The notes beneath the pieces were generated by a model. The model was not told the origin of the DNA, searched no databases, and saw only the letters and a list, made by a program, of their open reading frames with translations. 63,208 bases of DNA from a virus (taxonomy: Duplodnaviria > Heunggongvirae > Uroviricota > Caudoviricetes): the IMG/VR virus record IMGVR_UViG_3300031134_000612, one strand, 5' to 3'. Position 1 is the stretch's first letter. Every line of letters starts with the position of its first letter. This document shows, in pieces, positions 4,152-61,882 of this stretch. Both the position numbers and the translations under genes were made by a program.

Positions 4152-5195
4152 TTAGATAACCGCCATCTTATAAAGTAAAACAGATTCATTCGTTAAATCA
4201 TCTGAGAATACACCAAGTTGTGAAGTCAGTCGTTCTTTAATGCGATTTTGAAGATATTCATAAATGGCTTCATATCCTGAAATATCAACAGTGTCTTGTG
4301 TATTTAAATCAACTTCCAAATATCGTATTTCATTATTTCTAAATTTAAAATAAAGCGTTATACTTAACTCAAATTCATAATTATAAGTAAAAACAACAGA
4401 ATACAAATTAGTCGGTGTTCTATATTTATGGTTAGATAAACTATAATTAAACATTAATTCATAAGCAGTCTTGCCATATTTAAGATTAGATTCAAAACGA
4501 AGCAATGATTCAATTGTTTTAACTTGGTGCATAAGATTATTGCTAAAAACTTGTTTTAATGGTGTAAAAAAATCTTTTGGCTCAAGAGCAAAATTATAAA
4601 AAAACAGACCACTTTCTTCTTTACTGTAGTAAGTAAGATCAGTATTCTTTAAATTTTCAATTCTGAGTTCATCCACTGTCTTCTTGCCTATCTCATTAAA
4701 TAACGAAAATGTCATCCCCGGTTCAATATACTTGCAGAGTTCAACAAGGTGCTCAGAATAGAGTTCTTCAAAAATAACATCGTCAATCGGTTCGTTATGT
4801 TGTAGATATTTTTTTGAAGCAAGAACCATTCTCGTTTTAGTGCATTCTGGTTCTCTTGTTATTCCAAAATGAAACACATTGCCAAAATCAATAGAAATAT
4901 ACGAATTTTTTTGAGTATCTGATTGTTCACAAACCTCAATATTTACTTGTAAATCTTTTTTTGATGCGTATTCATGATCAACATGATAACGCAAATCAAA
5001 AAGTGAGGAAATTTGTTTGATTTTTGAAACATTCTGTTTAGCACATTCAAATGTAAAGAGAGCAAGCATCATATCATAATCGCGTGAACTTCTTTCAAAC
5101 GTATAAAAGCTGAATCGTCCGTCGATTGAGATAGGTGGGGTAAAATCATAATTTTTTTTCATTTTGTCTAAAATAAAATCATAAGATAGTGTCAC
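4152..5195 (-). CDS. Hypothetical protein, C-terminal MxxI-motif family
   Basis: 347-aa ORF ending VLLYKMAVI*. Confidence 0.75.
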   Translation of the reverse strand: MTLSYDFILDKMKKNYDFTPPISIDGRFSFYTFERSSRDYDMMLALFTFECAKQNVSKIKQISSLFDLRYHVDHEYASKKDLQVNIEVCEQSDTQKNSYISIDFGNVFHFGITREPECTKTRMVLASKKYLQHNEPIDDVIFEELYSEHLVELCKYIEPGMTFSLFNEIGKKTVDELRIENLKNTDLTYYSKEESGLFFYNFALEPKDFFTPLKQVFSNNLMHQVKTIESLLRFESNLKYGKTAYELMFNYSLSNHKYRTPTNLYSVVFTYNYEFELSITLYFKFRNNEIRYLEVDLNTQDTVDISGYEAIYEYLQNRIKERLTSQLGVFSDDLTNESVLLYKMAVI

Positions 5196-5300
5196 TTTAA
5201 AATCTCCACTTATAAGAAAACATTAATATTTTATCATAAATTGAACAAAAAAGCCAACTATATTGCTATAGCTGGCTTATTGATGAAAACATCATACAGA

Positions 5301-6485
5301 TTAAGGTTTAAATTTTGGCTTCTTTACTGGAACAGGAGCTGCCATCAATTTAACATCAATAACGTTCAACCCTTTTTTACGGAAGCCTTCAATTACGCGG
5401 TCAGTGTCATCATAAACAGCAACAACACGTTCCAAACCAATGTATTTTGAAATCCAAGCAGGCTTGATAACATAATCAGGCACTCGGTTTTCTGGACTAC
5501 GCAATTTGATACGGTCATAGCATACACCATAATCTTCCATCGACTTCAATGTTTTGTCCATGATTCGATCCACGCGACCACTCATCAACCAAATTTCGAA
5601 ACCTTTCGCACGATATTCTTTGGTCAAATCAATAATGTGTTGAATCGGTGTATCCAAATGACACAAGTCAAAATAGTTGTCCCAATCTTTCACATCACGG
5701 TATTGAGAACGGTGTTTTTCGTCCAGCAAAGTGCCATCAATGTCAAATACAACGACTGGTGGCAAAACAACTTCTTTCTTACAGTCAAACACTTCACGAA
5801 CACCCTGATAATCAGTCGCATACAATTCATGCTTTTCAACTTTACGAACAGTTTCTTTCAAGTAAACACCAAATTCAGCCCACATTTTTTGCAAGGCATC
5901 TACGGGTTCACCTTCTTTACGCTGCAAGTAACCACGCAATTCTGGATAATGAGCAGCTACATCACCTTTTGTAAACAGTTCAACATTGTCTTTCAACAGA
6001 GCCAGTGTTTGCCCCAACTGAAAAGCAAAGAACTTGTAGGTTTCAACCAGTGAAGATTTTTGATAGTCAGCTACATCACGCAAGTCAATGGAAGTCAACA
6101 CATCCAATTTGAAATCCAAATCAGCCGATTGCAATGCTTTTTTGACTTCTTCACGTTTTTCAGTGCGAGAATGATACGACAACAAACCACGAACAGTTCG
6201 AATCATTTTCAACGCATATGAACGTGGCAATGCTGCAGTGATTGGGTTAGCAGCCACTTGTTCATGAAGTCCATAGGTAGCAAGGATAGAGTTGTTACAC
6301 TCATCAACAGTACCTTTATAGCACCAGTTAACCACGCCATCTTTCACGCTCAAAAGGTTGCCGTTCACGTCTTTATAAGAATCGCAAAGTTTCTTTGCTT
6401 CTTGCATAGTGAGGGGTTCTGGAATGATGATATACGCATCAATGTCCAAAGAATCTTCTGAGCCGTGTTTGATTACTGGGTACAT
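5301..6485 (-). CDS. Nucleotidyltransferase-like domain fused to a HAD phosphatase (T4 PNK 3'-phosphatase type)
   Basis: N-terminal HGSEDSLDID (GS..DxD); C-terminal VFDIDGTL, LMSGR and YDD HAD motifs; basic tail KKPKFKP. Confidence 0.7.
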   Translation of the reverse strand: MYPVIKHGSEDSLDIDAYIIIPEPLTMQEAKKLCDSYKDVNGNLLSVKDGVVNWCYKGTVDECNNSILATYGLHEQVAANPITAALPRSYALKMIRTVRGLLSYHSRTEKREEVKKALQSADLDFKLDVLTSIDLRDVADYQKSSLVETYKFFAFQLGQTLALLKDNVELFTKGDVAAHYPELRGYLQRKEGEPVDALQKMWAEFGVYLKETVRKVEKHELYATDYQGVREVFDCKKEVVLPPVVVFDIDGTLLDEKHRSQYRDVKDWDNYFDLCHLDTPIQHIIDLTKEYRAKGFEIWLMSGRVDRIMDKTLKSMEDYGVCYDRIKLRSPENRVPDYVIKPAWISKYIGLERVVAVYDDTDRVIEGFRKKGLNVIDVKLMAAPVPVKKPKFKP

Positions 6486-6598
6486 GGTTTAACTCCTTAA
6501 TTTATTTTATTATTATATCAAAAAAAGACTAAGGCGTCAACGAAAATAGAAAGACGAAGCTATTGAATTAAAGCGAATGCTACTGAAAACGAAAACCT

Positions 6599-7303
6599 TC
6601 AAAAAGTAATCATTTCCAGCATGGTCATTTCGTCTGGAGTTAAGCTTTTATTTAAATTGATACGTTCATAACCCACCAGTCGAGCTAGTTCAGGATACAT
6701 TCTTTTTAACGCATGAAATTCAATAAGGCTTTTTGGAAACTTGTCGTTATAATAGGTCACTTGCAATGGCGTCATCGTTTTATTGTTGAGCCGATATTGT
6801 GTGGCGTGCCATTTTTGTTTTTTGAAAAAATAATCTTTTGTTGTTCTAGACGATTTAACAGTCATCAGATAAGAATATTCTTTACCATCAATCATTGTAA
6901 GATCTGGAGTTTGACCATAGTGATAATAGCTTTCAATATAGGGTTTACCACTGCCATGATAACTAATAAAGGCTGGGTGATTATTTTCTCTATGATACAC
7001 TTTTTTAGAAGTTGAAAAGAAATGTTTATTGATCAGTGTGCTTCCCACACCGACTTTAACTGGGTTGCTAAACGAAATATAGATTGTGGTATCGTTAGTC
7101 TTATCGAGAAACCGATAAGTAATCCCATGCAGCGTAATCGCATGATCCACACTGTCCCTGCTTTTTAACTTTTGAAAGCCAAAGGATTCAATAAGAGAAA
7201 ATTCAGACATCTCATCTGTTGATGCATTAAAGCGAACGGTATCTTGATCAGAGTACACAATTGCTAAAAATTCTTCTTTGGTTTTAAAATTTAAAAAAGC
7301 CAT
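6599..7303 (-). CDS. Hypothetical protein, C-terminal MxxI/F-motif family
   Basis: ATG at 7303 with GGAG RBS; YHRENNHPA segment; ends MTMLEMITF*. Confidence 0.7.
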   Translation of the reverse strand: MAFLNFKTKEEFLAIVYSDQDTVRFNASTDEMSEFSLIESFGFQKLKSRDSVDHAITLHGITYRFLDKTNDTTIYISFSNPVKVGVGSTLINKHFFSTSKKVYHRENNHPAFISYHGSGKPYIESYYHYGQTPDLTMIDGKEYSYLMTVKSSRTTKDYFFKKQKWHATQYRLNNKTMTPLQVTYYNDKFPKSLIEFHALKRMYPELARLVGYERINLNKSLTPDEMTMLEMITF

Positions 7304-7392
7304 GAATACGCTCCACATTAGTAATGGCTAATAGTAACATAATACAAGAAAATAATCTATCAAAAAAAATCTTAAAAATTACATAAATGTTG

Positions 7393-9904: not shown

Positions 9905-10648
9905 ATGAAAGCAAAAATTAAAACACTGTTAAATTTAATTAAGAAGAACGATGGTCGTGGTATTGCCAGTTTTCTAAAAAAAGAGAAAGAGACGGATCAA
10001 TTAGAAAATGTAGTTCAAATGAAATTACCTCATGATTTTGTTTATTCTTTTTATGGAACAACCGTAAAAAAAGTAAAAGATAAAACCAAAGCTTTTATCC
10101 TCAGTGGTGTTTATTATGAAAACGATACCAACGATGGCAAGATAAAAATTAAGCTATCACTCACTGAGCCTTCAAAAGTCTTTGAACAACTCAGTAAAAA
10201 TGAATGGAAAATAAAAAAAATTCTTATTGATAAAGATGCTATCGGTATTATTGCTATTGATGACAATGGAAACCTTATTCCACTTGTAGAAAAAAATAAA
10301 ATCAAAAAGATTAAAGAAAAAAGTATTAAACAAAATCTAGATGGTTTTAATGGTGACAAAAAACAATTGAACGCTTTGATATTGAAGAAAAACAAATCAT
10401 TTGAAACAAAAGAAGAAAATGATAATCTTTTAAGTTTGGAATCGACCAAAGCAATAATTGTAAGTGAAGCGATACCCGCAGCGACTGAAAGTTTTGCTGA
10501 AATTACCAAACCTGTCTTGAATTTGGAAAAAGTGAAGAAAATAGTTGCTGAACAAGAACTTCAAAAGAAAGCGACTGCAATACCAAAAACACCACGAAAA
10601 ACACCTGTTCGAAAAAGAACGCCAACTGTAAAAGTAGACCCTAAATAG
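9905..10648 (+). CDS. Lysine-rich hypothetical protein
   Basis: 247-aa ORF; basic Pro/Thr tail; terminator overlaps the stop codon. Confidence 0.7.
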   Translation: MKAKIKTLLNLIKKNDGRGIASFLKKEKETDQLENVVQMKLPHDFVYSFYGTTVKKVKDKTKAFILSGVYYENDTNDGKIKIKLSLTEPSKVFEQLSKNEWKIKKILIDKDAIGIIAIDDNGNLIPLVEKNKIKKIKEKSIKQNLDGFNGDKKQLNALILKKNKSFETKEENDNLLSLESTKAIIVSEAIPAATESFAEITKPVLNLEKVKKIVAEQELQKKATAIPKTPRKTPVRKRTPTVKVDPK

Positions 10649-12055: not shown

Positions 12056-13123
12056 TCAAATAGATTCCATTTCAATTAGTTGAATTTCTCTTTTCAAATC
12101 TGTGATTTTATAACCAAGCCATTTTTCAAGATAAATAATAAAAAATTGGCGAATCATTGTTGTATCATAATCAATACAGTTAGTGCGAAGCCATGTGAAA
12201 CTTTCAGAGATACTATCTTTTTTACCAAAAACAAATGAAAGATTATGTCGGTTAATATTAATTTGTAGTTCGAGTTCACCTTTAGACATCATCTCTAATG
12301 ACAGATCTCTTTTTTGATGTTTAATTTTAAGAAATGAAATTTCATTGATAGGTGTAAAAATAGAATTATTATAGTAAATGTTCGTTAGTTGGTTATCAAA
12401 ATCTAAAACATTTTCTAAAATCTTAATCGTTTCTAAAAATTGCAAGCCATCGTTAATTAATACAAAAAAATTAGCTTGCGGATCTTTTAACTGACTGTTG
12501 GTTAAAGCATTCAAGTGATCAACTACCTTAAAACTGTTAAAATTTTCTTCGATATTAATGTCAAAAGAAATATTTTGATTTAAAAAAGGATAACCATTAC
12601 ACATTTTTAATTCAAAGTGGTCATCAGCAGCAATAATGCGATAATAAATTTTACTATCTTTCTCCATATACAACAGGTCATCTGCAATAAAATTTAAGTA
12701 TTCAGATAGTCTAGTATTAAATGAATCACTGGTAAATAATACTCTAGTTTTAATAAAATCAACCAATTTGCTATTGCGACTATCACCACTAAGAATTAAA
12801 TTTTCATCACCTAAAAAATCTAGTACATAAGATTGATCAAATGGTTTAGACAAATCAAATTTACCTATAAAACAAAAATCATTAATATTATCTTTATTGT
12901 AAATATCTAAGTGAACATAATTATCAATCAGTTCCATTCTAAACTGAATTCCAAAATCAGTTGTTTTACCTGACAATGCACAATCGACTAAAAGATTTAA
13001 ATATTTATTCAACAATGTTTTATTATCTTCATCATCAAGTTCTTTAAGTGTTGTTTTCTTTAATTCAGATATGAAACAATCTTGAATAATTCCTGATTCA
13101 GCTAACTGCATATATAGAGTCAT
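12056..13123 (-). CDS. Paralog-array protein 5 (duplicated N-terminal domain), MxxI family
   Basis: YLNLLVDCAL and YLNFIADDLL repeats, NGYPFL; ends IQLIEMESI*. Confidence 0.75.
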   Translation of the reverse strand: MTLYMQLAESGIIQDCFISELKKTTLKELDDEDNKTLLNKYLNLLVDCALSGKTTDFGIQFRMELIDNYVHLDIYNKDNINDFCFIGKFDLSKPFDQSYVLDFLGDENLILSGDSRNSKLVDFIKTRVLFTSDSFNTRLSEYLNFIADDLLYMEKDSKIYYRIIAADDHFELKMCNGYPFLNQNISFDINIEENFNSFKVVDHLNALTNSQLKDPQANFFVLINDGLQFLETIKILENVLDFDNQLTNIYYNNSIFTPINEISFLKIKHQKRDLSLEMMSKGELELQININRHNLSFVFGKKDSISESFTWLRTNCIDYDTTMIRQFFIIYLEKWLGYKITDLKREIQLIEMESI

Positions 13124-13968
13124 TAAATAGTTTCCATATCAAATAAGAGTAGTTCACTTTTCAAATCTTTAACCTCGTAGTCTTTTCTTTTTTCAACAAA
13201 AGATCGGATAAAAAATTGAATAAGATTTAAATCACGACTAAAATTGTTTGATGATGTAAGTTTCAGTCCATCACAATCATTAAAATGAATGCTTATTTTA
13301 TCGTGTTCAATCTTGATTTCAACAAAAGGTGATTTAACATTAATAAATGGAGTTCTTTGACTAAAACAATGAAGAGTAAAATTGAAAGATGATTCTGCAA
13401 CAGAAACAGACGCACTGGTTGCTATGTTATTTTGATGAAAAACATTCATTAGATTATTATTAAAAAAGAAAGCTTCATCAATCAACTTAACATTACGTTT
13501 CATGTTTCGTCCTTTTTCAATATCCATAGGTGGATAGTCACTCAAAAATAATTCATGATCATAGCCGATAGAGCAATCAATATAACGATGAACATCATCT
13601 TTGGTGCCCCAGTCATCACCATCAACAGTGTCAACCTTCGAAAGAGATGCAGCCAAGGTGTGAACACTGGCCTTTTCTTTTAAATCAAAAGACAGAAAAA
13701 TACAATCATTGTAATAAGGATATGATTTTCCAAGCATAAGCCCCATGAACATATGGTCAGCACCCAATGATATTTCAACATCTAGTTCAAAATCACCATC
13801 ATAAATTAACATATCTTCAACCAGCAAGTCGAAATAAGCCAGCATTCTATTATTCTTTTGTTTAGACATTCCTTTAATATTGACACGTTTCAAATCCGTC
13901 AACATAATGGTGTGGTTGTCATTATTTGACAACATAAGTAAGTTTTCGTCTTTTTTTGATTTGGTCAT
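13123..13968 (-). CDS. Paralog-array protein 4, MxxI family
   Basis: YFDLLVEDML, KSYPYY, VKLIDEAFF; TAATG overlap with the next gene; ends LLLFDMETI*. Confidence 0.75.
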   Translation of the reverse strand: MTKSKKDENLLMLSNNDNHTIMLTDLKRVNIKGMSKQKNNRMLAYFDLLVEDMLIYDGDFELDVEISLGADHMFMGLMLGKSYPYYNDCIFLSFDLKEKASVHTLAASLSKVDTVDGDDWGTKDDVHRYIDCSIGYDHELFLSDYPPMDIEKGRNMKRNVKLIDEAFFFNNNLMNVFHQNNIATSASVSVAESSFNFTLHCFSQRTPFINVKSPFVEIKIEHDKISIHFNDCDGLKLTSSNNFSRDLNLIQFFIRSFVEKRKDYEVKDLKSELLLFDMETI

Positions 13969-14013: not shown

Positions 14014-14790
14014 TTAAATATACTTCATTTTAAACAAAGCAACGAAATCTGCATAGTCAATATCCAAAAATTCAGGAGAGTAATGATCGTACAAGTTTTT
14101 AAAGGTTAGTTTAAATAAGGTGACATCATTGTTAAAATTAGATTTTCTTACAAGGAAGCTAAAACGCTTAGTTTCAGAAATAATAACAATTTCATCAGTC
14201 CTAATAGAAAAGGCAAATGGTCCAAAATTAAAACGGGTAGACAAAAAATTTTCGCCACCACATTCAATCTCAAAAAGAGATGTTTTCACATTGTTTTTTT
14301 GAAACGGATTAAAGGGGCATTTTAATAGTTTGTTTAATATTTCATCATTGCAATAAAAAGCCTCATCAAATACCTTAACTGCATTAAAAAATAATGCGGC
14401 ATCTAAAATATTAATAGACTTATAAACGAAAGCATTTAATTGATTTGTTGTATCACCAGTGTCTATGCAACAGTTTTCTATAACATTCGATATCACTTTG
14501 TTGGTAACATGCTCTATATCACAATTAAACTTAAAAATAACTGGCATTCTGGTATTCTTAATGAATGGATAAGACTCTTTAAGACTAATACTGAATGTTT
14601 GATAATCGTAATAACAAACAACACTGGTCACCAATTGCTCGTGGTGAACAAGGATATCATCAATGAGAGCGTTTAAGAATTTTCGAATATTATCAATTTT
14701 ACTGGCAATACATTCTCTTCCACGAAGATCAATAGTGCGAAGTTCTTCAATGTTGAGTGTATAGGTATTGCCAATAATAATAGTTGTCAT
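14014..14790 (-). CDS. Paralog-array protein 3, MxxI family
   Basis: FLNALIDDIL, ESYPFI, VKVFDEAFY; ends VALFKMKYI*. Confidence 0.75.
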   Translation of the reverse strand: MTTIIIGNTYTLNIEELRTIDLRGRECIASKIDNIRKFLNALIDDILVHHEQLVTSVVCYYDYQTFSISLKESYPFIKNTRMPVIFKFNCDIEHVTNKVISNVIENCCIDTGDTTNQLNAFVYKSINILDAALFFNAVKVFDEAFYCNDEILNKLLKCPFNPFQKNNVKTSLFEIECGGENFLSTRFNFGPFAFSIRTDEIVIISETKRFSFLVRKSNFNNDVTLFKLTFKNLYDHYSPEFLDIDYADFVALFKMKYI

Positions 14791-15617
14791 ATCGCCATCA
14801 TTTCTTCTAGTGTGAACCAGCGTGCTAAATCAGTATGTTCCGTCTTCAATTGGGCATTGTAGAAACCTAAAAATAATGTAACAAATTTCTTAACACTGAT
14901 ATCCAGTAGTTGGTTTTTGTATAATGTGAAATCCATTGAATCTTCAAAATATTCAAACCTAACAGTGTTCTTATTCACTTTAATGTAAAATTCATTGTTA
15001 CACAATGTTAAATCAATGTTATTAGAATTATAATCTCTTAGATCAAAAATAGAATAATAATCTTCTGTAACATAAGCATTAACATTATACACTTTATTTT
15101 TGACAAATGATGTTAGTTTTCCATCTTGTTCAAAAGCTTTATCTATAACATCAAAGGCATAAAATACATCGAGTGCGTCAATATCAATAAAAGGTTCAAA
15201 TGAATTTTCATCATCATCTTGATTAAATTTATAGATATCATTTTTATTTAAAGTGTTAAGTGTTTTTGCAATTAAATCGCTTGTAATCATGTCAATAGGC
15301 AAATTTAAATCCAGTGGAAAAGCAACGGGATAATTGTCATCTGTTCTATTGTGGTGGTATATATCATTCAAAAAAGAAAAGAAAGGATAAGAGTGCTTAA
15401 TTCGAATAGAAAAAAAATTATGATTTAAATCTATGCTAATGCTGGTCAGTTGATCTTCTCGCATACAAAGAATGTCATCAGCTAAAATGTTTAAAAATTT
15501 AGAAATTTTATAGTTGTCAGATACAGTTACTGAATTGACTTCTGCATTCAATAAGTTGGATAACAATACAGATTGTTTACCAATTTTTAATTGACAAGGC
15601 GTAGATTCTTCGTACAT
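14787..15617 (-). CDS. Paralog-array protein 2, MxxI family
   Basis: FLNILADDIL, HSYPFF, FDVIDKAFE; ATGA overlap; ends FTLEEMMAI*. Confidence 0.75.
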   Translation of the reverse strand: MYEESTPCQLKIGKQSVLLSNLLNAEVNSVTVSDNYKISKFLNILADDILCMREDQLTSISIDLNHNFFSIRIKHSYPFFSFLNDIYHHNRTDDNYPVAFPLDLNLPIDMITSDLIAKTLNTLNKNDIYKFNQDDDENSFEPFIDIDALDVFYAFDVIDKAFEQDGKLTSFVKNKVYNVNAYVTEDYYSIFDLRDYNSNNIDLTLCNNEFYIKVNKNTVRFEYFEDSMDFTLYKNQLLDISVKKFVTLFLGFYNAQLKTEHTDLARWFTLEEMMAI

Positions 15618-15963: not shown

Positions 15964-16359
15964 TTAGATATGAATCATATTAAAGAGGTCAACAAATTGC
16001 TCAATGTTGTCGAATTGTTGTTCTGAGTTCATATTGATAACTGTAAGCATTAGCTGTTTAAATTGCTCTATTTTTAATGAAGACGATGGCGTAAATTGAA
16101 CACCAAAATCCCCATAGAAACAAAAAATCCTCGTATTTTCTACTTTTAATATGAAGTCTTTTGCGAAAAGATGAAAATCATACATATCAGGATCTCGACT
16201 AAAAGTAAAACCATTACAGAACTCTTCACGATTAGTTTCATCATTTTTCTGCATATCCGAACAAATTTTATGGATCGCTCCATTAGCTTTGAATAATCGG
16301 TCAACAATCATAATATTATTTAAAACTGCATTTTTCTCAAATTCTGTATAGTCACTCAT
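15964..16359 (-). CDS. Paralog-array protein 1 (C-terminal half only), MxxI family
   Basis: IMIVDRLFK aligns with the D-x-AF block of its neighbours; ends VDLFNMIHI*. Confidence 0.7.
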   Translation of the reverse strand: MSDYTEFEKNAVLNNIMIVDRLFKANGAIHKICSDMQKNDETNREEFCNGFTFSRDPDMYDFHLFAKDFILKVENTRIFCFYGDFGVQFTPSSSLKIEQFKQLMLTVINMNSEQQFDNIEQFVDLFNMIHI

Positions 16360-16718: not shown

Positions 16719-17120
16719 TTAATTGTTAACTTTGCAGACACTGTAAGTAACAGAATAGTAATCAACCATTTGTTGATCACCACGTTTATAGGTAACACCA
16801 TTAAAAACGATTTCAGTCGAATCGTTGATATGCGGTTGTTCATTGTAATCATACAACGTGGTTCCATTCCAGCTAACATGAGCCACTTGTCTTGGTCCTT
16901 CATTAGTAACCACCATCCAGTAAAGACCATTTAAACGATTGTAGTCACAAGTCTCTGCAACAGGTGTTTCATTAACCGTTGTATCCGCTGGTTGTTTCAT
17001 AATAATAGAACTATCATCCATGATGCCTTTTGGGCCAGTCAATGGACTTGTTAGAATATATTGAGCTTGCGAAAGAGAAAAAAAAGTAGAAATTGTTAGT
17101 AATAAAAATATTTTTTTCAT
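16719..17120 (-). CDS. Secreted protein with one Cys-bounded beta domain
   Basis: Signal peptide; C...WNGTTL...FNGVTYKRG...YSVCKVNN. Confidence 0.75.
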   Translation of the reverse strand: MKKIFLLLTISTFFSLSQAQYILTSPLTGPKGIMDDSSIIMKQPADTTVNETPVAETCDYNRLNGLYWMVVTNEGPRQVAHVSWNGTTLYDYNEQPHINDSTEIVFNGVTYKRGDQQMVDYYSVTYSVCKVNN

Positions 17121-30445: not shown

Positions 30446-31207
30446 ATGAGTGTAAACGAACTATTCGTAAAACATGGTAGAGCCATGCTCAAACACAAAG
30501 ATTTTCTTAAAATTTTTGATAATTTTGAAATGCTTAAACATTATGCAGTGTTCCCAGTCAGTGACAAAAATGAAATGTATACCATCACGGCAAAGAAATC
30601 TGCAGCCTTCCCAGCAGACAGTAACCAGAAGTATCGCCACATTATCAGTAAACTTAGCGACCAGATTACATTAATGCCAAAAGAAATGGAACAAAAGATT
30701 ATTGACACTGTATTCAATACATATATCAAAATGGGATTAATTAAGCACAGTAAAGCTGAAATTGATTTTTACAAAAGCGATATTATGTTGAGCAGTCATT
30801 TTGTAGACAATGATGTGTATCAACTCAAAACAAAAACAACTGGTAAGTCTTATTACAATAAGCCAATGAGGATTTTTAAATATTTTTATATGAATCAAAA
30901 CGAGTTCACGATTGTCAATTCGATAGTTCAGGAAATTCAGAAGCATAAATTTACAGTAGCTTACCATCTAAAAGGCGACAAAGTTGTAGTGTTTACAACA
31001 GACCCACATGCTCGTTCAAAAACAGTGTTAAAAGATGAATTTAATAACATTGATGAAGCTATCGAATTTATCAGACTTTACTTTGAAAAAATCATTTTTC
31101 ATTTTTGTTGGAGAAAAGAACTTCAAGTATTTTTTTCAAATGATGAATACGAATATGAAAGTTTTGATCAAAATCATCTTGACCTTTATTTTGCCTACCT
31201 AATCTAG
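30446..31207 (+). CDS. Hypothetical protein, AxxI variant of the C-terminal motif family
   Basis: ATG at 30446 after AGGAG; ends HLDLYFAYLI*. Confidence 0.7.
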   Translation: MSVNELFVKHGRAMLKHKDFLKIFDNFEMLKHYAVFPVSDKNEMYTITAKKSAAFPADSNQKYRHIISKLSDQITLMPKEMEQKIIDTVFNTYIKMGLIKHSKAEIDFYKSDIMLSSHFVDNDVYQLKTKTTGKSYYNKPMRIFKYFYMNQNEFTIVNSIVQEIQKHKFTVAYHLKGDKVVVFTTDPHARSKTVLKDEFNNIDEAIEFIRLYFEKIIFHFCWRKELQVFFSNDEYEYESFDQNHLDLYFAYLI

Positions 31208-37799: not shown

Positions 37800-37892
37800 T
37801 TCGACTCCTAATAATTGAATAATTATACTACATTCAGAAAGTGAAAGCAACAAAAAATAGCCCGAAGGCTACTTTTATATGTTTGTTAATTA

Positions 37893-49613: not shown

Positions 49614-49677
49614 CAATGCACCTTTCAATATCATTTTAGTTGGTAGGATTATATCATAATGCTTTCACATAGGCAAT

Positions 49678-49718: not shown

Positions 49719-51203
49719 TTAGTAGGATTGTTGATTGCGTGGCTTGTAGCGAATAGTCACGCCATACTCTTTTGGAACAATCACTTCTGTGTTAACCACA
49801 TAAATGGTATCGCAGTAGTTCGGAACACCAAAACCATCACCAGTGTAACCGTCAGTGAACATGATGAAAAGCTTAGGTTTGATACGCTTTTCACGCATGA
49901 ATGCCCAATTCGCAAGGAAAGATGTGCCACCACCACCAAAGAACTCGTATTTAGGCAAACTACGAATGTTAGCTGGCGTGTATTCTTTCAAGCTCTGTGG
50001 ATACACTTTACCGTCAAACGTCCAAACGCGAAGCGTAAAATCTTTCTTGTATTGCTGAGCGATACCGGAAATTTCGGACAAGAAGTCAGCCATTTCCACT
50101 TCACCGATAGAACCCGAACAGTCGATTGCAATGTGAATGTCCACTTTTTCAACTTGACGGAAACCCGGCATGATGAACTCGCCATCGAAAGAACGGCGTG
50201 ACGGACGGCTCCAGTCGTCGCTCTCGCGGAACAATGAAGTAATACGAGTGCGAATGTATTGACGCCAGTTAATCTCTGGACGACGCATACGTTCAATCAA
50301 ACGCTCCAAGTCAGCAGGCATTGAACCAGCGTCCGAACCATTGGTGGAACGGCGAGCTTCTTCGTTATCCTTGTGCTGGTCGTAGGCGTTAATCATACGA
50401 TCCTTGAAGTCACGCATAATTTCTTCACGTTCTTCGGCAGTCAAATCACGCGGTTTGAAATCAGCACCACCATCAGCCTTGTCGCCACCACCTTCACACT
50501 GACCACCACCTTCTTGACCTTCCGGGTTGGCTTTACGTTTCTCGTTACCTTCTTGCTGGATACCTGTACCAACAGAGTGGTCGTCAAGCGTAGTACCTTT
50601 TTGACCGGCATTAGGGTCTTTCAACAAGTCTTTGTAGACTTCTTCCATGCTCATATCGTCATACTTTTTATCGTAGAACAATTGGATAACTTCTTTACGG
50701 ATAAGAGTACCCACTTTGCAAGTTACCAAGTCACGGTTTACGCAGTAGTCAGCCGCAATGTTAGCAAGTTTCGCATGAAGGCGAATCTTTTCATCAAACG
50801 TCATATCGTTGTCTACATAATGCTCATAATCGTTCACGGTCGCAATCGCACGGCCAAAGTGGTCGTAGGCAACGTGAAGAATTTCGTGACCATACACAAA
50901 CTGAATTTCTTCTGGTTCAAGCAAGAGGAAAAAACCTACGTTGTAGTAGAAATGCTTACCATCGGTAGCGGCTGTTACAAGCCATTTAGAGGCGTCTACA
51001 AGCTCAAGGTTCATCGCCATGATGCCAAAGAATGGTTGACGCATAAGGAAGTTAGAACGAGCCTGATAGATTTTTTCTTCAACGATATCAATTTCTTCCT
51101 TACTGTAAGGGAGAGTTCGTTCCTTAACAGCCTGCAAAATTGGCGACAGTTCATCACCCTTTTCGCTGACTTCATCTTTCTTTTTTCCTTTGAGAATTGA
51201 CAT
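49719..51203 (-). CDS. Metallopeptidase-like (HExxH) plus vWA domain protein, DUF2201-like (module 1)
   Basis: TAATDG, GHEILH, NIAADYCVN, IAIDCSGSI MIDAS, GGGGTSF, FTDG. Confidence 0.88.
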   Translation of the reverse strand: MSILKGKKKDEVSEKGDELSPILQAVKERTLPYSKEEIDIVEEKIYQARSNFLMRQPFFGIMAMNLELVDASKWLVTAATDGKHFYYNVGFFLLLEPEEIQFVYGHEILHVAYDHFGRAIATVNDYEHYVDNDMTFDEKIRLHAKLANIAADYCVNRDLVTCKVGTLIRKEVIQLFYDKKYDDMSMEEVYKDLLKDPNAGQKGTTLDDHSVGTGIQQEGNEKRKANPEGQEGGGQCEGGGDKADGGADFKPRDLTAEEREEIMRDFKDRMINAYDQHKDNEEARRSTNGSDAGSMPADLERLIERMRRPEINWRQYIRTRITSLFRESDDWSRPSRRSFDGEFIMPGFRQVEKVDIHIAIDCSGSIGEVEMADFLSEISGIAQQYKKDFTLRVWTFDGKVYPQSLKEYTPANIRSLPKYEFFGGGGTSFLANWAFMREKRIKPKLFIMFTDGYTGDGFGVPNYCDTIYVVNTEVIVPKEYGVTIRYKPRNQQSY

Positions 51204-51446: not shown

Positions 51447-52829
51447 TTAGTTTTTGAGGCGTGCCGCGTTGAACTCCGTAGCCACAAGGTCAAACACTTT
51501 CTTGTCCATGTGGTTAGGCATTGGCATAACCTTGTAACGCTTCAACATCACGGTGATGATACCGAAGACAAACAACTCACGAGCGAAGTGTGCCTTTGCA
51601 AACAAGATGTAGTGTTCCATGCTTTTCACATAAGACTTCAACACATCTTCATACTGCTTCGATTTATCACCAGCCTCTTTCTTAACTTCTTCCAACTTCG
51701 TTTTCATTTCTTTCAGTGCGTGAGAACAATCGTTCGCAATGAAGTATTGAGCGGAAGTTTTGGACTTCAACTGTGGAAGGTCGAACTTCTTACCATCAAG
51801 AATGTCACGAGCCTTCGGCAAATCCATACCTTCTTTCACGAAACCAGCAAACTCTACCGCGATACCGCTACCAACACAAGACGCCGCGATGACAGAAATG
51901 TCGTTCTCGTTGATTTTATCGTCTTCTTCATGGACGTAGAAATCATCACCTTCTTCATCAAGAGCCTTCTTAGTAGCAGTCGGCTGATAATCACCGTAAG
52001 CCGCAAACAAAGCCTTGCTCAACATTTCCCATGAACGTGGGGTTGCGAACGCTTTTTCATCAGAAGACAAGAGGCGGTCAACGTTAAAGTCTTGCAACTT
52101 GCTACCGTTTGCACCGATTGACAGGTAAGCCAACACGTATGGGTGCATACCGTTTTCCGAAGCAAAGTTCAACCATTGTTCAGTGTTTACGTCCATCAAG
52201 TAGTGGCGGAAACGGTTAGCCAAAGGCAACGGCATGGAGTTAGTCACACCACCATCGGATTCCAAGTTACCAGCCGCGAAAACTACGTCCTTTGAACCGA
52301 GTTCGAAGCAACCGATGCGACGGTCGTTAATGAACTGGTAAGCAGCAGCCATTGTCGCTGGTGAACCGGAGTTCAATTCGTCGAAGAAGTATGCAGTTGG
52401 TTTCTTGTATTTCTCCCACTGCTCTTTCGCACGGCGAAGGAAGTCAGGCATTGCCCATGCAACAGTTGTTTCTTTGGTCACGTTGAACGCTTGTTCAAGA
52501 ACCGCTTCACCTTTTTCATCAACCTGTGGAACACCTTTTTCGTCATAAACAGGCACGAATACTGGTTTACCGGCTGCGTCCAAGATTGGAGTCTTGATTA
52601 CTTTGTCGTCTTTTGCTGGCAGACCACGAAGGTCAACGCTTTCAATTTGAGAGAGACGAATATCTTCAAAGTGGAAACCCATTTTCTCAACAAGAGCTTG
52701 CAGGATGCGAGACTTACCGATACCCGGATTACCCCATACGAAGAATGGTGTTTGTGAGTGGATGCAGTTCAGTGCATGTTTACGAAGACCTTTTGGGGAA
52801 ACTTTAATCATTGTGCTGTTAGTAGTCAT
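51447..52829 (-). CDS. MoxR/AAA_5-type AAA+ ATPase (module 1)
   Basis: Walker A WGNPGIGKS, Walker B YFFDE, AAGN sensor, LANRF arginine finger, TPRSWE. Confidence 0.92.
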   Translation of the reverse strand: MTTNSTMIKVSPKGLRKHALNCIHSQTPFFVWGNPGIGKSRILQALVEKMGFHFEDIRLSQIESVDLRGLPAKDDKVIKTPILDAAGKPVFVPVYDEKGVPQVDEKGEAVLEQAFNVTKETTVAWAMPDFLRRAKEQWEKYKKPTAYFFDELNSGSPATMAAAYQFINDRRIGCFELGSKDVVFAAGNLESDGGVTNSMPLPLANRFRHYLMDVNTEQWLNFASENGMHPYVLAYLSIGANGSKLQDFNVDRLLSSDEKAFATPRSWEMLSKALFAAYGDYQPTATKKALDEEGDDFYVHEEDDKINENDISVIAASCVGSGIAVEFAGFVKEGMDLPKARDILDGKKFDLPQLKSKTSAQYFIANDCSHALKEMKTKLEEVKKEAGDKSKQYEDVLKSYVKSMEHYILFAKAHFARELFVFGIITVMLKRYKVMPMPNHMDKKVFDLVATEFNAARLKN

Positions 52830-55302: not shown

Positions 55303-56604
55303 TTAAATTGTTTTATTTCTTATGACCGTAGTGCTATCCACAATCACCGCTTGCAAACTCGTCATAATCTCTTCTAATTTGCCCGCTAACTGACGGCTGT
55401 TCTCTGTATCATTAATGACATTGTTAATATGCTTCAACGACAAATTGATTTCTTCTTGAATGTTTGTAATCACTTCAAAGATCTCTTTAACCGCACTTTC
55501 TGTATTCTGAGATAAATTTCTGACTTCTTGTGCGACTACTGAAAATCCACGGCCAGCATCGCCCGCCCTTGCTGCTTCGATAGCGGCATTCAATGCCAAC
55601 AAATTCGTTTGAACTGAAATTTTGTTAATGGTGTCAACAATTGAGTTGATTTTATTTGACTGATTATGCAATGAATTAAGGTGAGTATTGGTAATATCAA
55701 CATGTTCTTTAATGTTGAACATTTCTTTGGTCGTTTGTTGAATGTAGTCTACACCACTGTTAGAGAGTTCAACACTTTGGTCAGACAAACTTAATGCTAA
55801 ATTTGAAATGTCTTTTTGGTTATTGAACTGTTGTATAAACTTAGTCGTATCACTCGCCACTTTAATCACTTTATAGACGACACCATCTTCATCAAAGACT
55901 GGATTATAAGACGCTTCCAACCAAAGTTCACGACCATGTTTATCCACTCGTTTAAATTTATCTGAAAAGAAGTTACCTTTCTTTAAAGATTCCCAGAATT
56001 GACGATACTCGTTACTTTTCTTATAGTCGTTTTCACAAAAAATAGAGTGGTGTTGCCCCACAATTTCTTTCTTTGTATACTTTACAGTTTTCAAAAAATT
56101 ATCATTGGCATCCAAAATCATTCCATCTGGTGTAAACTCAATGATTGCCATAGAAAGATTAATAGCTTTAATCTTGTGATCAACTTCTATTTTAGCCCCC
56201 ACAAGTTCGTTAATATTCGTAAACACACCCACCACTTCTAATAATCTATGATTTGAATCAATAATCGGGGTAAACACACTTTCAAACCATACTGAATGAT
56301 TGTGTTTGTTGCTGAATGAAATAATTTGATTAACTGAAACACCACGTTTTAATTCAGTCCACATGTCTTTATATTCTTTACTGTTCACATAGTCTTTTGA
56401 CAATAAAGAAGAATGATTACGACCTTTAATATCTTGTAAATCATAACCTAATATCGCTAGCATTTTAGTATTAATATCATTAACTGTTCCATTGGAGTCA
56501 AATCGAATGATACCAGTGGAGAGACTGATATGTTCTTGAACCGACTTCAAAGCTTCTATTTCAAAAATTAAGCTTGCAATTCTTTCTTTGTTTTTGTTAA
56601 ACAT
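55303..56604 (-). CDS. Soluble PAS-PAS methyl-accepting chemotaxis protein (BdlA-like architecture)
   Basis: Two PAS/PAC repeats ([18 protein letters not shown]); [33 protein letters not shown]; no TM. Confidence 0.93.
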
Positions 56605-57154: not shown

Positions 57155-57790
57155 TTAGATTTTCATCATATCGAGTACTGTGATAATGTCTTGATCAACA
57201 TCAGTGACTTCATAGCCCACTAATTGAGAAACCGTATCTTTATAAGCATTCAGCAGTGGAATAATAATATCATCTGCTTTTTTATAATAGACATGTACAT
57301 CAATAAAGGTGGGGTTCTCAGGTAATTTACCATCGAGTTGAGTAATTTCATAAATTGGAGTTACATTGTTTAAGTGAATAAAAAAACGAAAAGCCGTAAA
57401 GCCTATTTTATCACCAGCACCGCGAATAACAAAGCCCACATTATCAATATCAAAAAAATCTTTATTATCAGGATTTAATTCTATTTCTATAGAAGCTGGG
57501 GAATTAGAAAAACTAATATCAAGATTCAACAATTGAGAATATTTCAAAATAATTTTTTTTAGTTTATTTGTAAATGTCTTCGCTTTAATCTTTTTAATAC
57601 TGGATTCAAACAGTTCAAGATATTCTACTTCTTGAGTTAATTTACTGGTTGAAACAGGCTCATCAAGCGTGTGATGTTCACTGATCATAAAATAAGGATT
57701 GAAGTTTGTTTTTTCAGGGGTTACACCCACTTGAGCCATCAAGTCTTTGAATGCTTGATTAAATAATTTACGTCTTTCAAAATAATCCAT
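57155..57790 (-). CDS. Hypothetical protein, MxxI family
   Basis: ATG at 57790 with GGAG RBS; ends DIITVLDMMKI*. Confidence 0.7.
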   Translation of the reverse strand: MDYFERRKLFNQAFKDLMAQVGVTPEKTNFNPYFMISEHHTLDEPVSTSKLTQEVEYLELFESSIKKIKAKTFTNKLKKIILKYSQLLNLDISFSNSPASIEIELNPDNKDFFDIDNVGFVIRGAGDKIGFTAFRFFIHLNNVTPIYEITQLDGKLPENPTFIDVHVYYKKADDIIIPLLNAYKDTVSQLVGYEVTDVDQDIITVLDMMKI

Positions 57791-57841: not shown

Positions 57842-58165
57842 TCATTCTGGAACTTTTACATACTTAGACCCATTGATTTCAACAGTGTCCGTATCGGAAA
57901 CGGAATCATCAATAATGCTTCGGCTACCACTGACAACATGCTCAGTTGTTTTTCCATAAGGGAAACTGGTGTCCGTAACTGCATTAGGGCAATGAGTTAC
58001 ATAGAGGTTAGAATGTGAAAAGCCACCTCCTTTCAAGTAGAAAACTTTACAACCTTTCATTTCTGCTGGCATTGCATATTCAGAAGTAATGTTTTCCGAC
58101 GAAGCACCATAAGCCGCCAAAGACATGAATACCAAAAACAAGACGGCCATCATTTTTTTAATCAT
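57842..58165 (-). CDS. Small secreted protein
   Basis: Signal peptide; GCKVFYL..YVTHCPN. Confidence 0.65.
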   Translation of the reverse strand: MIKKMMAVLFLVFMSLAAYGASSENITSEYAMPAEMKGCKVFYLKGGGFSHSNLYVTHCPNAVTDTSFPYGKTTEHVVSGSRSIIDDSVSDTDTVEINGSKYVKVPE

Positions 58166-58249
58166 TTTAATCTCCATTTCATTTAAGGTGTGTATTATAA
58201 CAGGTGTCTAAACAAAAGTCATCAAATTTCATTGAAAAGGCCGAAGCCT

Positions 58250-59560
58250 TTATTCAAAGTTTTTCATGTCATGTTTCGGTGATTCTTTAGGAATTAAATA
58301 CGTGTTATGATGTGGAGTTAAAATCCAGTGCCACATTTTTGGTCTTTCTGGTGAAAACGCATTACCATCACCATCAGACAAAACAAAAACAGCGTCTGGA
58401 TGTTTTCTTTGTGCTGTAATTTCACGAATTTTCTTGTCCAAAATATGGAAATAAGTACCACCGCCACCACGCACTTTACCTGATTTCAAATCAATCGGAT
58501 AAAGATTACAATCAAACGCATACGCTTCAATTTCAAATTTATCTTCTGGAATAGTTTGCAACATTTTAACAAATCGTTGTGCATAAGAATAACACGAACC
58601 CGAAGTGTCAAGGAAGAACACAACACGATAACGTTCTTTTGAAGGTACTTCTTCATTCCAGTGACCTTGAATAAGAATATCATCATCCAGACACATTGTA
58701 CGACGATCTCGTGAGATCCAAGATGGTTTCTCAACTGTATCGTAACGAATCCCAGATTTCAAATGATGTTTTACAATTTCTTCCCACTTCTTTTTCTTCT
58801 TAGGTGGATTAGGATCAATACTGATATAAGCCCCTAATGGCATTTTACCTGCTGGACTGCCTGCAGCATCTTTGATTTCTGCTTCCAGCTCTTTTGCCAA
58901 GTCAAATTTTTCTTTATCACTCAATCGTGGATTGATTTCTTCTTGAAGGGCTTGGGCGGCTTCTGAACCGGCTTGCTGAGCTTGATCCATCAAATCTTGG
59001 ATAGCCGGATCAAGACCTTCAATGCCATTACCACGAGCGTGCTGGTCGAGTGTAGATTGATCAGTTTGCTTGTTGGTCTTGCCCATCAAGTCAAGATAGT
59101 AATGGAATGAACCACGGGTGTGAATACCATGTTTAATGATTTCATCTTGATCAAAGACAGTACCAACAAAACAGAATTTATCCCAGTCAACAATTTCAAA
59201 TTTATTGAAACCAAAACTGTTCACCAACATTTCATTGATAACAATATCTTGTGCCACGTTAACACTTTCTTGGTCAGCATGCTCCAAACCACGCTTACCA
59301 TGATTGAGAATAACATGAAGGCATTCATGAGCAATAACGAAGGCTTTGTTGTTCATATCAAGGGCATCCCAGAAATCAGGATTAAGAATAAGATACAAGA
59401 CATGACCATCGCGGTCAAACCCTACGGCTGCAGTTTTAATACTGCGAGTAAACAAAGGCTTACCGATTGACCAAAAAGTTTGAAAAATAACATGATGCAT
59501 TGATAGGCGATTAGCAATATCAATACGTTCTTCAAAAGTAAATTCTCTATCTTTTATCAC
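58250..59560 (-). CDS. Metallopeptidase-like (HExxH) plus vWA domain protein, DUF2201-like (module 2)
   Basis: AHECLHVILNH, NVAQDIVIN, FFLDTSGS MIDAS, GGGGTYF, LSDG; GTG start. Confidence 0.88.
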   Translation of the reverse strand: MIKDREFTFEERIDIANRLSMHHVIFQTFWSIGKPLFTRSIKTAAVGFDRDGHVLYLILNPDFWDALDMNNKAFVIAHECLHVILNHGKRGLEHADQESVNVAQDIVINEMLVNSFGFNKFEIVDWDKFCFVGTVFDQDEIIKHGIHTRGSFHYYLDLMGKTNKQTDQSTLDQHARGNGIEGLDPAIQDLMDQAQQAGSEAAQALQEEINPRLSDKEKFDLAKELEAEIKDAAGSPAGKMPLGAYISIDPNPPKKKKKWEEIVKHHLKSGIRYDTVEKPSWISRDRRTMCLDDDILIQGHWNEEVPSKERYRVVFFLDTSGSCYSYAQRFVKMLQTIPEDKFEIEAYAFDCNLYPIDLKSGKVRGGGGTYFHILDKKIREITAQRKHPDAVFVLSDGDGNAFSPERPKMWHWILTPHHNTYLIPKESPKHDMKNFE

Positions 59561-60113: not shown

Positions 60114-60674
60114 CTATATATTAACCATTGCTAGTAGATCAAGCTTATCATTTAAAGAGACTCCATTCGTTTCAATGTCTAAATTATTTAATTCAATGTC
60201 TATCAACTGATTGGTTCGAACCACTAAATCAACAAGTTCTGTTTTAGTTCGATTGACATATAACTTAATACTATGGGTCAAATCACCAAAGACGATTTTT
60301 TTAGAAGCTTTATGCATACGTGCTGAAACTTCCAGTAGGCCATAAGATCGAATGATTTTTCGACTATCAAGAAATGCGATACATTTTAAACCTAATGCTA
60401 ACTCATCTTTAAAAACAGTACCATCAAAGCGTAAAGCTGCCAGAGCTTCAGGTGCATAGCTACAGCAAATGTTAGCTTTTAACACATCATCAGTTTCGTT
60501 AAAAGAAACTCTCATAACAAGACCATTATCTTCTGATTTGGTTGAATTCCATAAACGATAAGTCACTGAATAACAATTGGGTGATATCGTGTTTTTACCT
60601 TCTTTCAATTTTTCTATAATGGTAATATTAAATTGATAAAAAAATTGATTAATTAATCGCTCATAATCTTGCAT
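60114..60674 (-). CDS. Hypothetical protein, MxxI family (duplicate of 60760..61293)
   Basis: MQDYERLINQFF...LNDKLDLLAMVNI*. Confidence 0.75.
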   Translation of the reverse strand: MQDYERLINQFFYQFNITIIEKLKEGKNTISPNCYSVTYRLWNSTKSEDNGLVMRVSFNETDDVLKANICCSYAPEALAALRFDGTVFKDELALGLKCIAFLDSRKIIRSYGLLEVSARMHKASKKIVFGDLTHSIKLYVNRTKTELVDLVVRTNQLIDIELNNLDIETNGVSLNDKLDLLAMVNI

Positions 60675-60759
60675 ACAGTCTCCTAAACTAGCTGTAATTA
60701 TCTAAATTTATATTTTACCCATCTTTCAAATCATTACGTTTGCCATTTAAAAATATTTC

Positions 60760-61293
60760 CTATATACAAATCATTCCTAATAGGTCCAACTTATCATTTA
60801 AATTAATGTTATTAGAGTCAATATTTAATTGTTCTAAATCTATATTAACCAAATCTTCAACTTTATCAATAATTTCAAAACGAGCTGTTTTAACTAGACT
60901 GATATACATTAAAATTGTGTTTGAAAAACTTGTGAAATTGATCAATTGTGTTTTATCCATTTCTGCTGTAATTTTTATAATATTTGAAAAATTTTTAATT
61001 TTTTTTCTATTAAGGTAATCAATACATTTTAAACCAATATTTATTTTATCATATATATCGGAACTGCCGAACTTCATTTGATTATGGTCTTGAAAGATAA
61101 TAGTAGATTTTAACATTAAATCATTTTCTAAAAAAAAAAATTTAACAACAGAACTAACAGGTTCTTTTTTTAAACAATAAGAAATTGAAAAACCTTCAGT
61201 TGAGAGTACTGTTTTCTTTTCAATAACTGGCACTTTGAAAGTTATATTAAAATGCTCAAAAAAATGATTAATTAACCGTTCATAATCCTGCAT
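60760..61293 (-). CDS. Hypothetical protein, MxxI family
   Basis: MQDYERLINHFF...LNDKLDLLGMICI*. Confidence 0.75.
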   Translation of the reverse strand: MQDYERLINHFFEHFNITFKVPVIEKKTVLSTEGFSISYCLKKEPVSSVVKFFFLENDLMLKSTIIFQDHNQMKFGSSDIYDKINIGLKCIDYLNRKKIKNFSNIIKITAEMDKTQLINFTSFSNTILMYISLVKTARFEIIDKVEDLVNIDLEQLNIDSNNINLNDKLDLLGMICI

Positions 61294-61327
61294 GCAGACT
61301 CCTTAAAATTTATTAAATTATCTAAAT

Positions 61328-61882
61328 TTATATTTTTGCCATCAAATACATATCAATGAGGTCAGCGAACTCGATATCGTCAATAGTAAGATTCCATTCC
61401 TTAAAATGACTATTAATGATGTTCATCGTAACATCTTCTAAACAACAATAATTAAGTCCATTTTTAGTTATCAAGTTAATGCCTTGATAACAATTGGTCA
61501 CTTCAATTGTATTATCAACTGTATTCATTTCAATAGTAAAATACATAGTTGGATAGTAATGTTCTACCTTCAATAAGTCCAAGACAGATACACATTTTTG
61601 ACCTATTTTCATTCGTTCAACAATAGCTTCATTATTGAATATCATACCACTTTTAACACCATTTTCATAAATATAAGAAACGGTTGTTCTTAAAACAACA
61701 TCAGATTTAAAATTATCTTCAAATTCAAATCGAATGATTTTATGATTAATGACATTTGATTTTTTTTCACGAGTGTCCACAAACATTAAACAATCAGGCC
61801 AATTCTCTCTTTCATGAAACTCTGTTAATTCAATTGATTGCGATTTAAAAAAGTAATCAATCATTTTTTCTTCATTATTCAT
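61328..61882 (-). CDS. Hypothetical protein, MxxI family
   Basis: Distant paralog (IGQKCVSVL versus LGLKCIAFL and IGLKCIDYL); ends IDMYLMAKI*. Confidence 0.7.
   Translation of the reverse strand: MNNEEKMIDYFFKSQSIELTEFHERENWPDCLMFVDTREKKSNVINHKIIRFEFEDNFKSDVVLRTTVSYIYENGVKSGMIFNNEAIVERMKIGQKCVSVLDLLKVEHYYPTMYFTIEMNTVDNTIEVTNCYQGINLITKNGLNYCCLEDVTMNIINSHFKEWNLTIDDIEFADLIDMYLMAKI

Follow-up and report, generated by a model that had tools for sequence, protein, structure and literature searches.

A shared C-terminal motif on nineteen otherwise dissimilar proteins of a phage-like genome: a possible built-in handle

In the closest described systems, a short element at or near the end of a protein serves in docking, targeting or secretion. 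The ESCRT-III paralogues end in an acidic amphipathic helix, the MIM helix, which is read by one hub, the MIT domain of Vps4. The poxvirus ankyrin/PRANC proteins, like further multigene families in viruses with large DNA genomes, have undergone lineage-specific tandem expansion and connect a variable body, via a short constant C-terminal element, to a common machine. Encapsulin cargo peptides and the capsid targeting sequences of phage T4 are short terminal peptides on unlike proteins in systems of the HK97 lineage, and the Dot/Icm signals of Legionella, present on hundreds of diverse carriers, combine a stretch rich in Glu and Asp with hydrophobic residues that follow it near the C-terminus. 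The DNA polymerase gp43 of phages RB69 and T4 ends in a peptide that binds the sliding clamp (structure 1B8H; PMC3012046); in the RB69 clamp, the hydrophobic residues of the polymerase tail fill a pocket on gp45, and the acidic ones meet two basic residues (PMC3012046). Here we describe a tail that resembles each of these in part and is found in a stretch of DNA of 63,208 nucleotides from a virus of the Caudoviricetes (IMG/VR record IMGVR_UViG_3300031134_000612; the whole stretch is called the window below). Nineteen of its genes encode largely dissimilar proteins, called tagged proteins or carriers, that share the motif [LIVM]-h-x-[MA]-x-x-[IF] (h, hydrophobic) directly before the stop codon. 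Tentatively, and with less than even confidence, we regard this tail as a built-in handle on a clade-specific, duplicating class of proteins, which would be read by one shared partner.

An earlier note on this DNA, made from the sequence alone, had quoted nineteen termini with this motif. Eighteen of them translate exactly as quoted and belong to minus-strand open reading frames (ORFs) with the stop codon at the quoted coordinate; the nineteenth, DLYFAYLI, also exists, but the position given for it, 30446, is a start of the plus-strand ORF 30389/30446..31207 and not its end. Recomputing the position counts reproduced them in full: position -4, counted from the C-terminus, is Met in 16 proteins and Ala in 3, position -1 is Ile in 17 and Phe in 2, and position -7 is aliphatic or Met in 18 of the 19. 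The enrichment over background was scored with the pattern [LIVMF][LIVMFY]x[MA]xx[IF]-stop in a set of 78 non-overlapping ORFs of at least 60 amino acids (aa), with 11 occurrences in 18,065 internal sequence windows as the background. A match was found in 17 of the 78 genes, that is, in about a quarter, compared with an expectation of 0.05 (binomial P ~1e-38), and the shorter pattern M-x-x-[IF]-stop was observed 16 times versus 0.25 times expected. Together with the full-length conservation of the orthologues, this enrichment rules out chance matches or spurious ORFs. Conservation at the DNA level, for example, of a terminator, promoter or recombination site lying over the gene ends, was likewise discarded, as the genes differ in their Leu and Ile codons, in their stops and in the sequences downstream: the codons ATT, ATC and ATA all occur for Ile, Leu has four or more different codons, and each of the three stop codons is used. 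Because synonymous codons and stop codons vary in this way, selection acts on the peptide. The motif is thus confirmed as real and far beyond chance, even after reduction for paralogy.

The extent of the shared module was determined with a C-terminus-anchored alignment that was weighted by family and tested against randomly shifted sequences. Hydrophobic residues stand out at positions -1, -3, -4, -6, -7, -9 and -14 and polar residues at -2, -5, -8, -10, -11, -12 and -15, so that six of the last nine positions are hydrophobic, which is more than a helix with one contact surface needs. Beyond the shared tail (-13 to -60), the pattern is no better than that of shifted sequences (p = 0.33), and since no in-register signal exists farther from the end, the shared module comprises about 15 residues, a turn and a 12-residue helix. 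The positions -5, -8 and -11 are repeatedly acidic, with Asp at -11 in 9/19, Asp at -8 in 7/19 and Asp or Glu at -5 in 8/19 proteins. An acidic patch preceding the motif, which the note had pointed out, is also evident from the median isoelectric point of the last 30 residues, 4.6 for the tagged versus 8.2 for the untagged proteins. Among the untagged proteins, some of them enzymes, short C-terminal tails rich in Lys and Arg are frequent (examples are encoded at 5301-6485, 9905-10648, 28384-29556, 31234-32238 and 43542-44102), so that two contrasting classes of C-termini coexist in one genome.

The proteins that carry this tail fall into several paralogue sets with unlike bodies, as had been proposed; BLASTP assigns the nineteen genes, all but one of which are on the minus strand, to four families, A-D, and seven singletons. 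Family A consists of the genes at 12056-13123 (355 aa, QLIEMESI), 13123-13968 (281 aa, LLFDMETI), 14014-14790 (258 aa, ALFKMKYI) and 14787-15617 (276 aa, TLEEMMAI), and probably includes the short gene at 15964-16359 (131 aa, DLFNMIHI), the product of which aligns with the C-terminal half of the family. Two of its start codons overlap the preceding gene, that of the 12056-13123 gene with the stop codon of its neighbour (TAATG) and that of the 14014-14790 gene with the gene at 14787-15617 (ATGA). Family B comprises two Ala variants, encoded at 22920-23615 (231 aa, FLFSAVVI), directly upstream of dnaK, and at 23647-24345 (232 aa, FILSALAI). The two members of family C, at 44177-44800 (207 aa, KVIEMLKI) and 44884-45489 (201 aa, DVLRMLKI), have two predicted transmembrane segments in the N-terminal half and about three, respectively, and the other 17 carriers have none, in agreement with the claim that soluble and membrane proteins alike are tagged. 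Family D is encoded at 60114-60674 (186 aa, DLLAMVNI), 60760-61293 (177 aa, DLLGMICI) and 61328-61882 (184 aa, with the longest ORF reaching 61897; DMYLMAKI). The singletons are located at 4152-5195 (347 aa, LLYKMAVI; no match in Pfam or PHROG), 6599-7318 (239 aa, TMLEMITF), 36399-36953 (184 aa, DLIDMCFI), 37140-37853 (237 aa, KILTMLTF), 48960-49634 (224 aa, MTKEMFAI) and 57155-57790 (211 aa as judged from orthologues, with the longest ORF reaching 57817; TVLDMMKI) and, on the plus strand, at 30389-31207 (272 aa for the longest ORF, with the alternative start mentioned above; an Ala variant). Overall, the carriers are 131-355 aa long.

The window thus contains 11-12 independent groups of carriers by BLASTP. 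When related loci are added, 15 independent BLAST clusters result, with Met at -4 in 13/15 and Ile or Phe at -1 in 15/15. A comparison of family profiles built with orthologues (hhalign) gave probabilities that did not exceed 10% with the tail included and 2.5% after its removal, and only 0.4% for the family of the 57155-57790 gene (the 57155 family) versus family D; with a 27-sequence profile of the 57155 family, none of the other tagged families of the window scored above decoys made from reversed sequences. The best hhalign partner of the singleton at 6599-7318 is the 57155 protein, over the last 25 residues only, and a block LVGYE..(D/N)L before the tail is common to these two and the family A proteins encoded at 12056-13123 and 13123-13968. 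The earlier note had named full-length homology of all nineteen to one fold as an outcome that would speak against it; no sequence or profile homology outside the tail was detected between the groups. At the level of sequence, there is no detectable similarity between the bodies of different groups, even by profiles. A profile of the 57155 family retrieved 21 proteins from 1.84 billion representative proteins; these have 199-262 aa, except for one fragment of 50 aa and one protein of 1189 aa in which the match covers only about 50 residues, and the same tail was present at the end of every member that was fetched. Longer fused forms of the C-terminal module of this family were searched for and none was found, a negative result of little weight.

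A Pfam domain is present in 0/19 carriers versus 17/30 untagged proteins of the window (Fisher P = 2.6e-5), confirming that no recognisable enzyme is tagged; the association with diverse recognisable domains that would be expected of a portable address tag is therefore not seen. A PHROG scan of 10 carriers, with at least one from each group, gave no matches, and feature searches of the ESM Atlas with the proteins encoded at 60114-60674 and 4152-5195 gave no usable lead. The carriers form a class apart from their untagged neighbours, and they multiply by tandem duplication.

The main alternative to a handle is that all carriers descend from one ancestral fold, of which the C-terminal helix is the most constrained core element and is read by no partner. 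The helix would pack on the sheet and on the N-terminal and middle helices, and it would have been noticed only since the stop codon anchors the alignment. This structural keystone reading is considered somewhat less probable than the handle. There are weak collinear hints of a common body that favour it: with the tail removed, family A and the 57155 family align over 97 columns (E = 0.019), and the hhalign scores are slightly higher for pairs of tagged proteins, 13.7, than for controls, 11.7 and 10.8. The absence of known domains from all carriers, their similar sizes, their tandem duplication and their varying copy number among close relatives would also be expected for one fold.

Relatives of the window were found on very large contigs. 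The 44-63 kb region has syntenic loci with orthologues in contigs of 773 kb, 1.84 Mb and 244 kb (L003, L005 and L007), among them orthologues of the family C gene at 44177-44800 in L005 and L007, and the 57155 orthologues in the related loci are conserved over the whole protein, with 47-89% identity. In all orthologues in the three contigs the tail is located at the exact C-terminus, save for one added Lys. That residue is found in L005 (1635-2462), where a tagged orthologue of 269 aa ends in DMSKIK; the counterpart in L003 ends in TMETI. In about 90 tagged proteins, which come from at least four genomes, the chain ends at Ile or Phe, or, in about five cases, one residue later (Ser, Ala or Lys), the extra residue being Ser or Ala in four distant members of the 57155 family; among these roughly 90 proteins, no extension of more than one residue past the tail was found. 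The fixed end at Ile/Phe is unusual for a purely internal structural element. Within family D, D176 and D179 of the tail are invariant or nearly so. The middle copy of this family, 60760-61293, is missing from L003, L005 and L007, which have two copies and not three, and in a contig from run X18, position 60684 is joined to 61321 with 17 other letters in between; because the copy is absent from close relatives, it represents a recent gain or loss. In a 13.9-kb contig of a further relative, 5 of 25 genes are tagged.

Structures were predicted with AlphaFold2 for family D (model m4226e809be8a of the 60114-60674 product, from an alignment of 14 sequences, A3) and for the 57155 family (model mb11ebfbdf7f7, from 11 sequences). 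The family D model is confident, with a predicted local distance difference test score (pLDDT) of 91.4 and a predicted template modelling score of 0.84; it consists of helix 3-14, five strands, helix 86-104, three strands and helix 150-164, followed by a nine-residue loop and the tail helix 174-185, with a pLDDT of 82-92 over loop and tail. The model of the 57155 family is weaker (pLDDT 69.7); here, N-terminal helices and five strands precede helix 178-191, from which an ordered linker leads to the tail helix 200-208, and the pLDDT of the last 30 residues is about 86-88. Both are predicted to be alpha/beta proteins that share a C-terminal order of helix, beta-meander, helix, loop and terminal helix and differ in their N-terminal halves, although the N-terminal helices of the two families are similar in sequence (MDYFE.R... 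in 57155 versus MQDYERL... in family D). Neither model matched an entry in any structure library. In both models, the tail thus appears as an ordered helix that is integral to the protein, unlike a peptide attached by a flexible tether.

The ordered tail helix and linker with high pLDDT, the common C-terminal layout and the similar N-terminal helices would all suit a structural keystone, as would the fact that the invariant residues of family D cluster at three places, namely the tail, the middle helix and the helix at the N-terminus. It would also suit this reading that Met at position -4 can be replaced by Ile, Val or Ala. However, the tail is conserved between families while the other core elements are not, a buried helix does not need the strict end at Ile or Phe, with at most one residue added, that is seen across 15 clusters, the acidic stripe on the polar face of the helix is conserved, and the membrane-anchored family C has the same tail. 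The interpretation as a built-in handle best explains why the tail has remained fixed while all other core elements have drifted past recognition, and it likewise best accounts for the fixed protein end, for the recurrent acidic residues on the surface and for the presence of the tail on a membrane-anchored family. The conserved surface charges, D176 and D179 as well as the recurrent acidic positions, suggest an interface.

The nineteen genes would then represent a clade-specific class of alpha/beta proteins in megabase-sized phage-like genomes, with most members in the cytoplasm and one family anchored in the membrane. The class would expand by tandem duplication, and the bodies would diverge until they can no longer be recognised by sequence. 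The constant part would be a capping turn (D/N-h) and a 12-residue helix, h-p-h-h-p-Met-h-p-Ile-COOH (p, polar). The hydrophobic side of the helix might seat the tail on the protein's own body, and the free end together with the acidic stripe might provide a constant contact point for one shared partner, the existence and identity of which we infer. The variable bodies would confer different specificities, as in a family of adaptors or effectors. As the helix is predicted to be an ordered part of the fold in the two modelled families, a handle, and not a floppy address peptide, is proposed.

Several observations weigh against such a handle. Tail helix and linker are placed as confidently in both models as an ordinary core helix would be, and the linker preceding the tail is conserved without insertions or deletions within families. 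Met at position -4 is replaced by Ile or Val in 4/27 members of the 57155 family and by Ala in three proteins of the window, and this tolerance of Ile, Val and Ala implies that the requirement may be simple hydrophobic packing. The early acidic residues and the Lys near the end of the helix would also fit plain stabilisation of the helix dipole. Lastly, known docking tails, such as those of RB69 gp43 and SSB (SSB-Ct), sit on flexible linkers. The built-in handle and the structural keystone remain close as explanations.

Among specific partners, a sliding clamp is suggested by the closest sequence parallel. In the RB69 genome, gp43 is encoded with the terminus SLFDMFDF, which agrees with [LIVM]-h-x-[MA]-x-x-[IF]-stop at every defined position; the chance of this is ~6e-4 for a random terminus. 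The similarity extends to the location at the extreme C-terminus, to the interleaving of hydrophobic with acidic residues and to the residue classes at -7, -6, -5, -4, -3 and -1 (L-F-D-M-F-D-F versus L-h-[DE]-M-h-x-I). Because the clamp-docking terminus of RB69 gp43 has the same pattern, the chemistry of the tail is known to work as a docking element, which also speaks for the handle, and a hydrophobic pocket with two basic residues, as on gp45, would suit its acidic groups (PMC3012046). The tails might therefore be clamp-docking elements of the type of the PCNA-interacting peptide, which would tether the carriers to a clamp of the gp45/PCNA type encoded by the element, like the polymerase tail of RB69 and T4. 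In favour of a clamp, the gene directly upstream of family D (61940-63208) encodes an RFC/MoxR-like AAA+ protein that has a BRCT domain. Nevertheless, we consider a clamp quite improbable. The gp43 peptide is located on the flexible tail of DNA enzymes, whereas the tail described here is modelled as an ordered helix on an ordered linker, and 0/19 carriers have a DNA-related domain. Conversely, the DNA enzymes of the window are untagged: the C-termini of three DEDDh exonucleases, a PNKP-like protein and the AAA+-BRCT protein are either basic or unrelated to the motif. In addition, it is implausible that a quarter of all genes encode clamp clients.

The same AAA+ gene is part of one of two modules that lie among the tagged genes. 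Genes for MoxR-like AAA+ proteins are present at 51447-52829 and, fused to the BRCT domain, at 61940-63208, and they are paired with genes for putative metallopeptidases of the DUF2201 type at 49719-51203 and 58250-59560, respectively, one of which has a von Willebrand factor A (vWA) domain; their gene order is kept in related contigs. The tagged gene at 48960-49634 is the last of a trio in which it follows the AAA+ gene (51447-52829) and the DUF2201 metallopeptidase-vWA gene (49719-51203), and this order is conserved in L003, L005 and L007. AAA+ machines commonly read C-terminal tails, as in the pairs ssrA/ClpX and CbbX/RbcL. The tail could thus be a degron or a handle for an AAA+ machine of the element, so that pairs of a MoxR-type AAA+ and a DUF2201-vWA protein remodel, process or destroy the carriers at a defined time. 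However, as about a quarter of the genes are tagged, adjacency to the AAA+/DUF2201 modules is expected by chance and proves little, and an AAA+ reader is given as low a likelihood as the clamp.

A signal for export, injection or packaging into the virion, comparable to Dot/Icm or type I secretion signals, encapsulin cargo peptides or T4 capsid targeting sequences, is the least likely of the alternatives, by a small step. It would be in line with the acidic block followed by terminal hydrophobic residues and with the many diverse carriers that have no housekeeping role, and large capsids could presumably take up many proteins. The note had considered a Dot/Icm-like signal, yet none of the 30 untagged proteins of the window has a Pfam match to a component of a type IV secretion system, and an ORF at 46187-47029 that had been described as DotL-like has no such match and only a weak one to Glyoxalase_8. 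More generally, neither the window nor the examined related loci yielded a gene for a secretion system or a capsid. Known secretion signals are disordered, and the Dot/Icm signals are in addition degenerate, without a fixed Met or Ile or a fixed end, whereas the tail is ordered in the models. Encapsulin and T4 peptides are flexible, and the T4 ones are N-terminal and cleaved; a link to a shell or capsid gene was not found here. Promoter boxes of one kind, sigma70-like extended -10 boxes (TGnTATAAT-type), precede tagged and untagged genes alike, the neighbouring enzyme genes included, and the tagged genes are thus not set apart as a late (virion) class, which argues against the virion-packaging tag that had been suggested. 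Finally, such tails are absent from a 42-kb region of the jumbo Xanthomonas phage XacN1, which among cultured phages gives the best match to a window protein of 818 aa.

Docking to DnaK, another earlier suggestion, was set aside on general grounds: DnaK prefers hydrophobic cores with basic flanks, and since the flanks of the tails are acidic, it is an unlikely reader. Of the two remaining described systems, ESCRT-III differs from the carriers in that its bodies are clearly homologous and polymerise and in that its sequence motif is a different one, and neither an MIT-like reader nor a homologue of Vps4 was seen. In the PRANC proteins, an F-box-like domain of about 40-50 residues contacts the partner Skp1, whereas the present tail has about 15 residues and the bodies are not repeats.

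The idea of a modular address label, put forward in the earlier note, is supported in part only. The tail is a protein-level feature that is shared by dissimilar groups and located at the extreme C-terminus in orthologues; it does not behave like a bolt-on tag, given that its carriers lack known domains, are of similar sizes and arise by tandem duplication and that tail and linker are ordered in the models. A far-reaching version, proteome-wide C-terminal addressing in which a quarter or more of the proteins are tethered via an RB69-type terminal helix to a single hub, is viewed as a speculative and rather improbable extension. The hub could be a clamp-like ring, an AAA+/vWA machine or the gate of a compartment, and with such an arrangement, a sorting or docking code on a genome scale would be described for the first time in a bacterial virus; a literature search found no publication that describes this family.

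The genome that harbours the tails is itself unusual. The window has a G+C content of about 33% and is densely coding, mainly on the minus strand. Its DnaK product is matched letter for letter on a metagenome contig of 1,281,823 bp in the European Nucleotide Archive (ENA), and the product of 60114-60674 is also present on a contig of 1,859,102 bp. Several window proteins match PHROG families and the 818-aa protein shares 47% identity with one from XacN1, and for these reasons the element is phage-like. The carrier contigs, at 0.77-1.86 Mb, exceed any published phage genome that was found, the largest found in print being 841 kb (10.1101/2025.01.14.633092). No related loci were found in IMG/VR, and megablast searches of phage and plasmid collections gave no matches. 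DNA nearly identical to the window occurs in sequencing runs labelled as phyllosphere, surface, soil and food-production metagenomes. In an assembly of an RNA library (X20), low-depth contigs cover 57920-59529 and 60328-60461 with ~93% identity, for which carry-over of DNA is possible, and the raw RNA reads of two further runs yielded nothing or low-complexity matches.

In addition to DnaK, the AAA+ and DUF2201 proteins and the three DEDDh exonuclease paralogues, the genes recognisable with Pfam encode an R2K ATP-grasp protein, a DsbA/ScsC-like thioredoxin, a PNKP-type phosphatase, an ADP-ribosylglycohydrolase, proteins with NADAR and CYTH domains, a TnpB and a soluble PAS-PAS-MCP-signalling protein. 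The latter (55303-56604, minus strand, 433 aa) has two PAS domains and a methyl-accepting chemotaxis domain (MCPsignal) and is kept in 2/3 related giant contigs (L003 and L005); a signalling protein of the chemoreceptor type is unusual for a phage-like genome. The TnpB/Cas12f-like protein (47031-48767, minus strand, 578 aa, with a TNB domain) is absent from the syntenic position in L005. A smaller, separate tail family is formed by two paralogues on the minus strand, 16719-17120 and 17292-18236, which have N-terminal segments resembling signal peptides and a common C-terminal block ending in C-[KR]-V-N-[NH].

The constant ending of 15 residues provides an experimental entry point to proteins that are otherwise unrecognisable, because one peptide could serve as the bait for a hub and a single truncation could probe the function of dozens of genes. 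If the tail is a docking code, it would point to a new principle in the organisation of very large viral proteomes; should it be a structural keystone only, the carriers would still constitute a large new fold class, with the birth-and-death dynamics that are typical of genes involved in conflicts between hosts and viruses.

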